From NCBI RefSeq assembly GCF_003334765.1, contig NZ_QOWT01000052.1: a stretch of 17,115 nucleotides of DNA; one strand, 5' to 3'. Below the pieces are notes generated by a model. The model was given only the letters and a program-made list of their open reading frames with translations. It had not been told where the DNA came from and ran no database searches. The position numbers and the translations under genes were made by a program. The stretch is from Escherichia coli. Lineage in GTDB: Bacteria; Pseudomonadota; Gammaproteobacteria; Enterobacterales; Enterobacteriaceae. This document shows, in pieces, positions 4,328 through 9,712 of this stretch; positions within the stretch are counted from its first letter, which is position 1, and every line of letters begins with the position of its first letter.

Positions 4328-5111
<784 letters not shown>

Positions 5112-5115
<4 letters not shown>

Positions 5116-5780
5116 AACAGCTCCTCATAGGTACTCAGTGGTCGATGTTCCACCTGACTGACCTGCTGCCAGAGCGGGGCGTGATGCTCCGGCACTGTCT
5201 GCCAGCCAGACGATGCCGGACAGAGGCGATGTGAGGCCACCAGTTTCTCATTACTGTAGATCCGCAACTCGTCATCCAGCGATATTCGTATCGATACTGG
5301 CTGACCACACAGCGCTTCGGGAACGCTGTAACGATTACCACCAACCTCGATATAGCTGTCCCAGGACACATGGCGGATGTCGAAGTAACTGGTATCGAAG
5401 TCCGTATCCGGTAACGGCTGCAGATGTTCCTGCTCCAGCGCGAAGCGCTGTTCCGGCGTTTCTTTGAACTGGCGAAGCTCCCGTTTGTCAGCCACATCGG
5501 CTATCCATTGCTCCAGTAGTTGATTAACATGAGTGAAGCTGTCGAACCTGCGGTACCGGACGAAGAAGTTCTCCTTGAGGTATTTCACCATCCGCTCAAC
5601 CTTACCTTTTGTTCTGGCCCTGCGTGGACGGCATGCCCGTGGCAGGAAGTTATAGTGGTCGGCCAGCAACAGGAATCCGGAGTTGAACACGACTTTCCCG
5701 TTGTTATTCTTCAGCACCGCAGCCTTCTGGTTATCAACCAGCACCGTTTTCACACAACCACCGAATTTGATCCCTGAAAA
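5112..5780 (-). pseudogene. istA: IS21-family istA, 5'-truncated (C-terminal part only)
   Basis: Translation ..GIKFGGCVKTVLVDNQKAAVLKNNNGKVVFN... continues in frame upstream of the called start to a stop near 5780. Confidence 0.7.
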
Positions 5781-6018
5781 CTGTCAGCGCTGCGAGGACA
5801 TGGCTGCTTAAAAAAAGAACAAATGGTAGTGTCCGCTATTGCCAGTACACCTCAGATTCTGGGGATAACTGCGAAAAGAATATGTGCCAGGAAAGTCGGC
5901 TCCCGGGAAAAAGACCGCTGGCGGCGCAGCTGCTGGATACGAAAGCTGAGCTGAAAGGATCCCGGGAGGACGTCCGTAAACTTCAGTCCCTGGCCCGTCA
6001 TGACGGGAAGGTGAAAAA

Positions 6019-6660
6019 GTGAATGCGGACACCTGGACCCGCCTGCAGGCCTTCCGACATGCTCTGGAGCTGACTTCCTGTGAGGCTTCTCTCACCGCCG
6101 GGTATGATCACCTGAAGGATTTCCCGGCCGGTTGCAGCGAGCTGGCCAGCCAGACGCTGACTGATTATCTGACGGAAGACGGCAGCAACCTGTACTCCTG
6201 TATTGTCGGTATGCAGTGGGATAATGGTCCTGGCAGATACGGCCACGTCATTGCCGCCCCTGCCAGGGACTATATCGACCTGACCCTTGATCAGTTTCCA
6301 GGCTATCATAACCGGATTGTGGCAGAGCCCGTTGAGTCCGGCGGACAGCTCGCGGCAGACCTCAACAGGGAGCCTGCCATCAGTACAGCTGATGGAATAG
6401 TGGCCAGCGCATCAGATAAGGTTAATTACATTACTGAACAGAAAAATCGCCAGCCAATGGTGATCATTACAGAATGTTACAAACTGATCAGAATGACGGC
6501 AAGATTTATACCAATGTGCCAGTCATCTCAACTCTTCCAGCACCAGATATTCCCTCGCTTATTTATCATTTCAGACGTTGGCTCCTGCAGTTTGTCCAGG
6601 AACACCTTAGATCGTTTAGCTACTGACTGGAAGGTGACACTGTCCGTCCTGTCGCTATAG
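6019..6660 (+). CDS. Hypothetical protein; the C-terminal third may be spurious read-through
   Basis: 213-aa ORF with a GTG start overlapping the stop of a small upstream ORF; GC-rich backbone-like codon usage; no recognisable motifs. Confidence 0.35.
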   Translation: MNADTWTRLQAFRHALELTSCEASLTAGYDHLKDFPAGCSELASQTLTDYLTEDGSNLYSCIVGMQWDNGPGRYGHVIAAPARDYIDLTLDQFPGYHNRIVAEPVESGGQLAADLNREPAISTADGIVASASDKVNYITEQKNRQPMVIITECYKLIRMTARFIPMCQSSQLFQHQIFPRLFIISDVGSCSLSRNTLDRLATDWKVTLSVLSL

Positions 6661-7239
6661 GGCTTGATATAAACCAGGCAGGCAAGGGATCTGGTTAACA
6701 CCTTTCCTTCCATAAAGTGTTTGAAGATCCAGAGATACGTATCCACAAGCTCCAGCCCTGTACTCAGTGTCCCCGACTGGAAGACCTGCGGTTCAGCTGG
6801 TATTTCCGTTACATCCATGACCGGTGTCTGCGCAGCAGTGCCTGTCATCAGGATATTCATGGAGCCAGTCTGTATGCGCCTCTGGCGTTGAAACAAACAT
6901 ATGAAGTGTATTTCGGATATGACTGTACGCTCAGGAAGTACGGCAGATTCCGTCAAAAATTACCTGTAAAGACAGACTTCAGAAAAAACGGTGCTCGCCG
7001 CAGACCGGTGACCGGGCGAAGCCCGCGAACCGGCGAGGAAGCGCAATGGATCTGTAATCACAGTGAGCAGGTACGCCCTGAAGCCTTCATAATCGGTAGT
7101 GTATGCTGTTTTTCCGGAATGATTTATCCACATATCCAGAGGCCCGATCCAGTAAATAGATCCATGAATGATCAATAAAGGATCCATTAAAGATCCCCAT
7201 ATCGCTACAAACCTTGTCACTCATGGGCCGGGACCACGA

Positions 7240-7345
7240 TCACATAAGCTGTGGCATGTTACTGATAAACTGTAATATGCTAATGATAAGCTGTATTCAG
7301 TAATGCATATACTGAAGTAAGCTAATGACATAAACTATGGTCAGT
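7240..7345. repeat. Iteron-like repeats upstream of repA (RepFIB-type origin repeats)
   Basis: Repeated ATAAGCTGT / ATAAACTGTA-type motifs, at least five copies. Confidence 0.5.
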
Positions 7346-7499
7346 ACGCCAGACTCTGTTGTTAAATACAGACTGCAGGTTTTTCTTCAGTCAGTTAGCG
7401 GGGCTCTGACACACGATTTGCTGTTTATTCTTTTACTGTCCACAGGCAGGAGGCTTTCTGGAAAACGAAAATTCAGACATCAAAAAACTGTTCGGCGAG

Positions 7500-8477
7500 G
7501 TGGATAAGTCGTCCGGTGAGCTGGTGACACTGACACCAAACAATAACAACACCGTACAACCTGTGGCGCTGATGCGTCTGGGCGTCTTTGTACCGACCCT
7601 TAAGTCACTGAAGAACAGTAAAAAAAATACTCTGTCACGCACCGATGCCACGGAAGAACTGACGCGTCTTTCCCTGGCCCGTGCAGAAGGATTCGATAAG
7701 GTTGAGATCACCGGCCCCCGGCTGGATATGGATAACGATTTCAAGACCTGGGTGGGGATCATTCATTCCTTTGCCCGCCATAACGTGATTGGTGACAAAG
7801 TTGAACTGCCTTTTGTCGAGTTTGCAAAACTGTGTGGTATACCCTCAAGCCAGTCATCACGCAGGCTGCGTGAGCGCATCAGCCCTTCCCTGAAACGCAT
7901 TGCCGGTACCGTGATCTCCTTTTCCCGCACCGATGAGAAGCACACCCGGGAATACATCACCCATCTGGTACAGTCAGCCTACTACGATACTGAACGGGAT
8001 ATTGTTCAGTTACAGGCTGATCCCCGCCTTTTTGAACTGTACCAGTTTGACAGAAAGGTCCTTCTTCAGCTTAAGGCGATTAATGCCCTGAAGCGACGGG
8101 AGTCCGCCCAGGCACTTTACACCTTTATAGAGAGCCTGCCCCGGGATCCGGCACCGGTATCGCTGGCGCGGCTGCGTGCACGCCTCAATCTGAAGTCTCC
8201 TGTATTTTCCCAGAACCAGACGGTCAGACGGGCAATGGAGCAGTTGCGCGAGATTGGATATCTTGATTACACGGAGATCCAGCGGGGGCGGACAAAACTC
8301 TTCTGCATTCACTACCGGCGTCCCCGGTTAAAAGCACCGAATGATGAGAGTAAGGAAAATCCGTTGCCACCTTCACCTGCGGAAAAAGTCAGTCCGGAGA
8401 TGGCGGAGAAGCTTGCCCTGCTTGAAAAACTGGGCATCACGCTGGATGACCTGGAAAAACTCTTCAAATCCCGCTGA
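7500..8477 (+). CDS. repA: Plasmid replication initiator RepA, RepFIB-type
   Basis: 325-aa ORF beginning [30 protein letters not shown]..., recalled as IncFIB RepA; flanked on both sides by iteron clusters; GTG start. Confidence 0.8.
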
Positions 8478-8478
8478 A

Positions 8479-8747
8479 CATAAACTGTAGTCAGTGAAGA
8501 GTGCTCCTTTACTGACTACAGCTTATATTATCAGGTGCAGTGAGTGGTCTGCTCACTGCAGTTTATATTCAGTTTCCTGCAGTGCTGCCTGTGGCTGAGC
8601 TGCCATCTGCCTGTCCCTTACGTGAGTCACCCCGTAACCTGATGCTGAGGCATTTCTCCCTTTATAAAACATGGTTTACTCACTACAGCTTATCTACCTG
8701 CTCCAGCTTATGTTATGTCTGTTCTGCTGACCACTGCTTATATAAGG
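8479..8747. repeat. Iteron-like repeats downstream of repA
   Basis: Repeated ACTACAGCTTAT / CTGCAGTTTATATT / CCACTGCTTATATA motifs in both orientations. Confidence 0.5.
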
Positions 8748-8755
8748 AAGTGCCG

Positions 8756-9496
8756 TTACTTCAGGGGAGGCAGTGTACGCAGGATCTCCGCAGCATCCCG
8801 CCCGTCACCTGTGAAAGGCACTGCCAGCGTGGCAGCCATATCCAGTGCAAACACTCTGGTATAAACCTCCATAGAACGTGGATCCCTGTGACCAGCCAGT
8901 GCCTGGATGACTTTCCGGGGCTGGCGGTGATAGAGCATGTGCATGATATAGCTGTGCCGGAAGGTGTGTGGTGTGACCGGAATCGAAAAGTGCACCCCGT
9001 CAGCTTCGGCCCGCTTCACTGCCTGTTTCAGCCAGTTCCGCATCGTTTCATCCGTCACAGCCCATAACGGTGCACGGCGCCGGGGCCGGGTGGTGATCAT
9101 CCAGCTCTCCATCTGCCTGACATAGCTTATATCCGTCAGCGGGACCAGGCGGACTTCATCTTTTGGAGGGCGCCCGCGTCGCGCACGCACTTTTTCGGAC
9201 AGGATCCGCACAAACGGTCTTACTCCATCCAGGTCAAATGATTCCGGTGTCAGCATCCGGGCTTCGCCAATACGCATTCCGGTATTCCAGAGGGTGGCGA
9301 ACAGCATATGGTGACGCTGATCCGGCATATAGAAAAGAAGGGCACTCACTTCCGGGGCCAGCAGGTAGGCCGGTGTGGCCCCCGTGGAAGTGGCCATTCT
9401 TCTCAGGGAGAGCGCTGTTGCAAAATCCACCCCTGGCGCAATGGGTAACAGGGAGACGCGTTCTGGTGAATTCTGCAGGGGAATGACATTGTTCAT
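8756..9496 (-). CDS. int: Tyrosine site-specific recombinase (phage-integrase family)
   Basis: 246 aa with C-terminal [12 protein letters not shown]...[16 protein letters not shown], matching the R-H-R-Y catalytic region (LGH...Y motif). Confidence 0.8.
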
Positions 9497-9712
9497 GAGT
9501 TATTTTTCACGTAGCACACGCACTGTTTATGGATACAGTTATTCTGACCTGAACGCACGGATCCTTCCACGACAATAAATCGCAGCGCGCGGATCCTTTT
9601 GTTTGCTTATCACGCATTATTGCGGGTAAAACCAAATACGTAAAGGCGCGTTTTGCCGCAGGGATCCTGTCTTAAGCCAGTCATGGCGCGGGCTGAGAGC
9701 TGGTTTGCCGTT

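Follow-up and report, generated by a model that had tools for sequence, protein, structure and literature searches.

Probable remnants of three genes beside a predicted P1-type iteron origin in the RepFIB flank shared with plasmid F

The window, the whole 17,115-nucleotide stretch of Escherichia coli DNA analyzed here, matches E. coli plasmid pB16EC0481-1 (IncFIA/IncFIB) with 100% identity. A preliminary description had placed four ORFs between 5882 and 7220, and all four were found there (Table 1); a further ORF of 153 aa is open opposite the minus-strand pair. The coupling that it reported is also present, as the TGA of the 46-aa ORF and the GTG of the 213-aa ORF share a 4-nt GTGA overlap. 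On the minus strand, positions 6528-7220 make up 231 codons in one frame, and translation gave TAA at 6962..6960 as the sole internal stop, as had been stated. Taken alone, this layout, both the overlap and the common minus-strand frame, is not beyond chance; 24 ORFs of at least 100 aa lie in the 17-kb window, many of them antisense shadows, and two adjacent ORFs fall in one frame by chance one-third of the time. RefSeq annotates a 213-aa hypothetical protein and RepB in the region and nothing else, and some DFAST records name the 213-aa ORF ydiA.

Table 1. Features of the region and aligned segments, in window coordinates
Feature	Position	Strand	Remarks
ORF, 46 aa	5882..6022	+	ATG start; TGA stop 6020-6022
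ORF, 213 aa	6019..6660	+	GTG start 6019-6021; stop 6658-6660
ORF, 142 aa	6528..6956	-	includes the DUF3800 remnant
ORF, 153 aa	6717..7178	+	open opposite the minus-strand ORFs
ORF, 86 aa	6960..7220	-	open frame over RepFIB origin DNA
KfrA-like 3' remnant	5882..6022 (homologous part 5918-6019)	+	by tblastn
Segment aligned with L017 4930-5339	5960-6357		83% nt identity
Segment aligned with L017 5510-5638	6361-6482		follows 170-nt L017 gap (5340-5509)
Segment aligned with L017 5882-6221	6488-6825		begins at DUF3800 stop codon; 83% nt identity
N-terminal transglutaminase-like domain (putative)	6019..6357	+	83% nt identity to L017 5001-5339
Chimeric C-terminal tail	6483..6660	+	reads antisense of DUF3800 remnant; homology to L017 264-aa gene stops at 6482
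DUF3800 3' fragment, pseudogene remnant	6488..6825	-	in frame with aa 266-358 over 6546-6824
Junction filler, DUF3800 remnant to RepFIB left arm	6826..6881	.	no L017 homology
GC-rich hairpin	6989..7046	.	outer origin edge; nearly invariant in distant RepFIB-like replicons
DnaA box TTATCCACA	7124..7132	+	perfect consensus match, invariant in alignment
Five GATC (Dam) sites	7146, 7159, 7170, 7181, 7192 (7146..7195)	.	spacing 13, 11, 11, 11 nt
Five upstream RepA iterons (BCDD'D'' block)	7243..7339	+	copies at 7243, 7264, 7285, 7306, 7329; period ~21 nt
repA, RepFIB initiator, 325 aa	7500..8477	+	RepB-family plasmid replication initiator in every matched record
Six inverted iterons	8479-8742		downstream of repA

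Two checks had been proposed for these ORFs, and the first, homology and profile searching, gave a divided answer. The profile searches were empty: the four ORFs and the overlapping plus-strand ORF had zero matches in NCBIfam and PHROGs, the 213-aa ORF had zero in Pfam, and the 213-aa ORF together with its intact relatives had zero in PADLOC. The best match of the 213-aa ORF among PDB sequences had an E value of 0.87, and an Rfam scan of the whole window returned zero matches. At the tblastn level, homologs were found for three of the four ORFs.

The second check was comparison with related plasmids. Plasmid F (NC_002483) and window 5853-9600 share 97.8% identity, with one base difference in 5853-7220 and 49 in 7221-8600, and the encoded 213-aa protein is identical to WP_000990665.1 of plasmid F. 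The description of the region as backbone adjoining IncFIB was borne out in that the sequence is the RepFIB flank of plasmid F (36.6 to 39.3 kb), with the same order of 213-aa ORF, origin, repA, and tyrosine recombinase; the region is already known as plasmid F sequence. The window differs from plasmid F in its iterons and repA, where the 49 changes lie, and it therefore combines an F-type left flank with a RepFIB allele other than that of plasmid F. With a single difference in 5853-7220, the comparison with plasmid F has no power for a selection test. Left of 5850, the window holds an IS21-family remnant that is absent from other plasmids. Of 5426 complete E. coli genomes, 3085 carry some part of the region and 322 carry at least 80% of it, the 213-aa ORF included. 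Most carrier E. coli genomes keep just 6882-7500, the repA-side arm.

We then considered the 46-aa ORF. Its residues 13 to 46 are 71% identical by tblastn (E 1e-8) to aa 162 to 199, the last 38, of a 199-aa protein (L007) of pO157-like plasmids, which matches KfrA_N (PF11740, E 9e-20) at aa 10 to 121. The window lacks that DNA-binding domain and holds the C-terminal coiled-coil tail, coupled to a downstream gene as in KfrA-like relatives. Intact relatives have 199 to 203 aa, and in L007 and in contigs L012-L016 a 4-nt overlap joins them to the gene that follows; in L012-L016, intact members of the family described below come directly after a 203-aa KfrA_N gene. We take the GTGA coupling in the window to descend from a genuine operon in which a KfrA-like gene and a 264- to 268-aa gene are translationally coupled. 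By homology, the 46-aa ORF reads as the last ~38 codons of a gene for a KfrA-like DNA-binding, coiled-coil protein. KfrA of the IncP-1 type likewise joins a DNA-binding N-domain to a long coiled-coil, and the 46-aa ORF matches the coiled-coil tail. The partners of IncP-1 kfrA are kfrB and kfrC, whereas the downstream partner of the KfrA-like gene here is a gene for a putative transglutaminase-like protein.

All homologs of the 213-aa ORF are unnamed Enterobacterales plasmid proteins, mostly of 264 to 268 aa (E 1e-50 and better), and they align to ~73% of the 213-aa protein's own length. The nearest intact relative is a 264-aa protein on a Citrobacter braakii plasmid contig, L017, in which a KfrA-tail remnant is followed by the 264-aa gene and, 86 nt on, by a convergent 377-aa DUF3800 gene. 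Aligned with L017, the window shows two deletions. The first removes 170 nt inside the gene (~55 internal codons), and the second removes 243 nt, namely, 157 nt from the 3' end of the gene plus the 86-nt spacer. The frame is restored ~30 nt past the first gap and then stays open through DUF3800 antisense sequence to its stop codon; identity at the internal deletion (6358-6393) is low, and the exact path of the frameshift is uncertain. Homology over the full length of the family, including the C-terminal block WVSECGLRFRK..., is missing from the 213-aa protein, which has a ~55-residue internal gap and a nonhomologous tail. Its last ~50 residues are antisense DUF3800 sequence, and the only matches of residues 181 to 213 are to DUF3800 genes of L003, L004, and L008 read in antisense.

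Next, we examined the conserved residues of the N-terminal domain. The window copy violates 10 of 54 conserved sites, compared with 0 to 2 in each of 26 intact members. One of the changes, C40S, replaces the second Cys of the FPxGCCELAS motif with Ser (GCSELAS in the window) through a single TGC-to-AGC exchange. This Cys is kept in the pO157-type paralog and is invariant in 30 remote homologs of ~150 aa; Ser occurs only in the window copy. The window copy thus lacks the nucleophile Cys of the transglutaminase-like superfamily, and it retains His76 (in GHVI) and Asp87 (in DYIDLTLDQF) of the triad. The dN/dS ratio of the domain is uninformative, at 0.72 between the window and L017 and 0.71 between two intact members. 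With its predicted nucleophile, its middle portion, its C-terminal domain, and its KfrA partner all gone, the 213-aa ORF is probably a decayed, nonfunctional relic.

As the main alternative, the 213-aa ORF could encode a short but functional variant of the family, such as an enzyme with a Ser nucleophile or a noncatalytic binding protein. Several observations would fit this. The ORF is open, identical in plasmid F and the window, and annotated in hundreds of plasmids; its Shine-Dalgarno sequence (AAGGTG) and coupled start are kept, as are the triad His and Asp. Furthermore, pO157-like plasmids carry a paralogous form of 206 aa that likewise has no C-terminal domain, so a short form could work. 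However, the change from Cys to Ser falls on the one superfamily-invariant position, the other violations of conserved sites accompany it, ~55 codons are gone with a local shift of frame, and the protein ends in another gene's antisense. The KfrA-like partner gene has been lost but for its tail, and our search of the 320 nt upstream of the ORF revealed no sigma-70-like promoter; the counts from our promoter and terminator scan of 5700-7600 were at or below shuffle expectation. In addition, three of the four differences from L006 within the ORF are nonsynonymous. Given these points, we consider a functional short variant unlikely and prefer the reading of the ORF as a relic.

To describe what the relic may once have encoded, we used the intact family. 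A search of Pfam with the 264- to 268-aa proteins themselves gave no significant family, and their remote relatives in sequence gave weak Pfam matches to YunG, Transglut_core, and Transglut_core3. Against standalone remote homologs of ~150 aa, the family aligned with an hhalign probability of 99.8%. The AF2 model of P0043, a 268-aa member, is of moderate confidence (pLDDT 65, pTM 0.52); in it, a helix begins with the Cys, and the strands after this helix bear His and Asp. Foldseek with this model retrieved, beyond direct homologs, transglutaminase-like proteins and proteins with the McjB C-terminal domain. These matches suggest that the intact family is a putative transglutaminase-like Cys-His-Asp enzyme or hydrolase coupled to a KfrA-like protein. 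We compared it with known enzymes of transglutaminase-like or papain fold, namely, Transglut_core (PF01841), Transglut_core3 (PF13471, which includes the McjB C-domain), YunG (PF24585), protein-glutaminase, and LapG. The 264- to 268-aa family differs from these in matching no Pfam model and in having an extra C-terminal region of ~100 aa, and the window copy differs in having Ser for Cys. A search of the literature for a link of KfrA, transglutaminase-like proteins, ydiA, or DUF3800 to RepFIB found nothing relevant.

On the minus strand, tblastn with the 377-aa DUF3800 protein WP_000545983.1 aligned its aa 266 to 358 with window 6824..6546 (E 1e-31, 61% identity). The PF12686 domain spans aa 2 to 301 of the intact protein, so that ~36 last residues of a ~300-residue Pfam domain are left in the window. 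The homology to DUF3800 is clear over this fragment, and neither the whole domain nor an intact frame is present. Two 1-nt deletions upset the last codons of the remnant, which has neither a start codon nor a promoter. As in L017, it lies convergent beside the family gene. Omega between the remnant and L017 is 0.70, versus 0.09 when two intact genes are compared across this segment, indicating relaxed selection on the remnant. DUF3800 residues 1 to 265 were sought in 6826-7220 and not found, and neither the first 44 residues of the 142-aa ORF nor any of the 86-aa ORF has a DUF3800 counterpart. The junction filler supplies part of the nonhomologous N terminus of the 142-aa ORF. At its position, another E. 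coli plasmid (L008) has 770 nt that include DUF3800 aa 51 to 265. That plasmid keeps aa 51 to 372 of the protein, with a frameshift, which suggests stepwise loss.

The remainder of the region, from 6960 to 7220, lies in the left arm of the RepFIB origin as predicted from the arrangement of its elements. We judged the conservation of the origin blocks in an alignment of RepFIB-type replicons that are 67 to 97% identical. In it, all five GATC sites are invariant, and the DnaA box, also invariant, is the sole zero-mismatch match in the window. The elements stand in the order of RepFIB- and P1-type replicons: DnaA box, Dam cluster, upstream iterons, rep, and downstream iterons. The layout in the window fits the published description of RepFIB (PMC11983097), in which the origin is made up of the upstream BCDD'D'' iterons, the downstream iterons have a control function, and there is a DnaA site. 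The oriR of P1 (NC_005856) has DnaA boxes, five Dam sites, five incC iterons, repA, and nine incA iterons. The RepFIB elements have the identical order and orientation relative to rep, and their five GATC sites, about one helical turn apart, are located as the annotated Dam sites of P1 are. However, there is no detectable DNA similarity between the two origins. RepFIB also differs from P1 in having one perfect DnaA box rather than the annotated 18-nt DnaA site, six downstream iterons rather than nine, and an added GC-rich hairpin outside the DnaA box.

Related copies of this hairpin, ~78 to 84% identical, occur at two other plasmid origins. In mini-F, the copy is found between resD and repE, ~60 nt to the left of the pair of DnaA boxes in ori2. 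In a ColE1-like plasmid of 4.8 kb, it lies between ori and rop, with rop ~40 nt downstream. Sixteen pairs make up the consensus fold, and compensatory changes occur in 3 of these; the folding z-score of -1.5 is not significant alone, and the terminator scan of 5700-7600 did not call the hairpin as a terminator. Around their n'-pas (ssiA) site, pBR322 and pUC presumably have a sequence like that of the hairpin; near mini-F ori2, a primosome assembly site was reportedly described by Imber, Low and Ray in 1983. A conserved hairpin beside a plasmid origin, as expected of n'-pas/ssiA, is found at all three places, RepFIB, mini-F ori2, and the ColE1-like plasmid. In ColE1, ssiA sits just downstream of the origin (PMC3167613). 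We offer the hairpin as a candidate single-strand initiation or primosome assembly site, a lead rather than a result. In a bolder reading, the 213-aa ORF of plasmid F, with its Ser and its new tail, would still be expressed and used as a noncatalytic or altered member of an undescribed, widespread plasmid module, a KfrA-like DNA-binding protein coupled translationally to a transglutaminase-like Cys-His-Asp enzyme, and would be retained near RepFIB through an effect on plasmid maintenance; separately, the hairpin would be a priming site shared by RepFIB, RepFIA ori2, and ColE1-type origins. We find this decidedly improbable and retain the relic for the ORF and the candidate site for the hairpin.

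The preliminary description had also proposed that the minus-strand ORFs could be one gene of about 230 aa, inactivated by a nonsense mutation or read through. The shared frame with its lone TAA favors this, as does L008, in which the 86-aa frame is open too, with 94% amino acid identity. However, nucleotide identity to L008 (96.7%) exceeds that amino acid identity, and substitutions in the 86-aa frame are spread evenly over the codon positions (6:6:9, 2:2:2, and 5:4:4), so the frame shows no coding signal. The pECOS88-type RepFIB allele, a common one, has a further in-frame stop in it; distant replicons keep the DnaA box, GATC sites, and hairpin, whereas the frame is disrupted there by indels of 1, 13, and 1 nt. 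L010 has no equivalent of the 86-aa ORF, and RefSeq has never annotated it. Protein homology is confined to 6546-6824, the C-terminal quarter of the DUF3800 protein with aa 1 to 265 missing, and the rest is origin elements; none of the two ORFs and the overlapping plus-strand ORF matches a family. A single gene is therefore highly improbable, and the 86-aa ORF reads from these comparisons as a chance frame over origin elements that is by chance in phase with the DUF3800 remnant. The last possibility, that all four ORFs are spurious and without genic ancestry, would fit the lack of Pfam, NCBIfam, PHROG, and PADLOC matches and has next to no likelihood, since, at the protein level, three of the four are clearly homologous to genes that are intact elsewhere (KfrA tail, 264- to 268-aa family, and DUF3800), at the E values given above.

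Taken together, these results describe an ordinary, familiar stretch, the RepFIB flank of plasmid F, in which remnants of three genes are joined to an iteron origin of the P1 type. The region is very probably decayed accessory DNA left of the RepFIB origin in plasmid F and its relatives. An ancestral arrangement would have been reduced by deletions, and the order of 264-aa gene and convergent DUF3800 gene still stands intact in L017 from Citrobacter braakii. The KfrA-like gene would have lost all but its last ~38 codons, leaving the 46-aa ORF and the 4-nt overlap with the next start. The 264-aa gene would have lost its ~55 internal codons, its last 157 nt, and the 86-nt spacer, so that its frame now enters the antisense of its neighbor and ends after 213 aa, and its invariant catalytic-type Cys would have become Ser. 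Codons 1 to 265 of the DUF3800 gene would also have been lost. What remained would have been joined to the RepFIB left arm, with its hairpin, DnaA box, five Dam sites, and five iterons in the order of P1 oriR.

This interpretation bears mainly on annotation. The "hypothetical protein" of 213 aa in plasmid F and in hundreds of IncFIB plasmids is probably what is left of a wrecked gene, and the tempting minus-strand frame combines a DUF3800 fragment with origin DNA. None of the thousands of matched records annotates the DnaA box, Dam cluster, or hairpin. Two by-products are of modest interest: an uncharacterized Enterobacterales plasmid operon that pairs a KfrA-like gene with a putative transglutaminase-like gene, and a hairpin common to three kinds of plasmid origin.

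Compared with plasmid F, the window carries 1 difference at positions 5853 to 7220 and 49 at positions 7221 to 8600. Positions 7220 to 7240 look like a recombination breakpoint, with the Dam-site cluster on one side and the first iteron on the other, and the window's RepFIB therefore looks like a mosaic in which an F-type left arm is joined to an iteron/rep segment from another allele. The left boundary specific to the window lies at ~5849, where IS21-family remnants end; left of this point, other plasmids have one different flank in common.

Location of the features in the window and in matched plasmid loci
Feature	Coordinates	Strand	Remark
IS21-family remnants	window 4328-5849	minus	
IstB	window 4328..4645 + 4825..5115	minus	split in two pieces
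IstA	window 5112..5753	minus	C-terminal 213 aa
~320-nt insertion	L018 (matched plasmid locus) 3503-3821		equivalent to window 6839-6854, where the DUF3800 remnant meets the RepFIB arm
GC-rich hairpin element	window 6989-7046		conserved; outside the RepFIB DnaA box
109-aa ORF	window 7433..7762	minus	antisense to the repA start
KfrA_N + transglutaminase-like pair	L017 (Citrobacter braakii plasmid contig) 2814-7015; L012-L016 (five contigs) 4393-5807		

Some RefSeq plasmids annotate the antisense ORF as a hypothetical protein (WP_011478086.1, WP_042095689.1), and there the repA call is shorter, at 750 nt; this is probably a misannotation. In Escherichia, Salmonella, and Klebsiella, SSU5-like phage-plasmids encode homologues 52 to 66% identical to RepFIB RepA (window 7500-8477).

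On Enterobacterales plasmids, we found an uncharacterized, translationally coupled gene pair, in which a KfrA_N gene (203 aa) precedes a transglutaminase-like gene (206 or 264 to 268 aa). Both forms of the latter occur in tandem in L017, separated by a DUF2971 gene, together with a convergent DUF3800 gene. For intact members compared with each other, dN/dS is high (0.45 to 0.7). Some plasmids (97.5% group, e.g., NZ_OZ546919.1) carry the ~320-nt insertion; a 16-nt duplication flanks it, and it could be a small mobile element.

Of 5426 complete E. coli genomes, 3575 contain the hairpin element, at 5320 places in all, and it is annotated at none of them. Related copies adjoin mini-F ori2 and are also present between ori and rop in a ColE1-like plasmid. 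The window's hairpin may be a primosome assembly/ssi site, which it seems to resemble.
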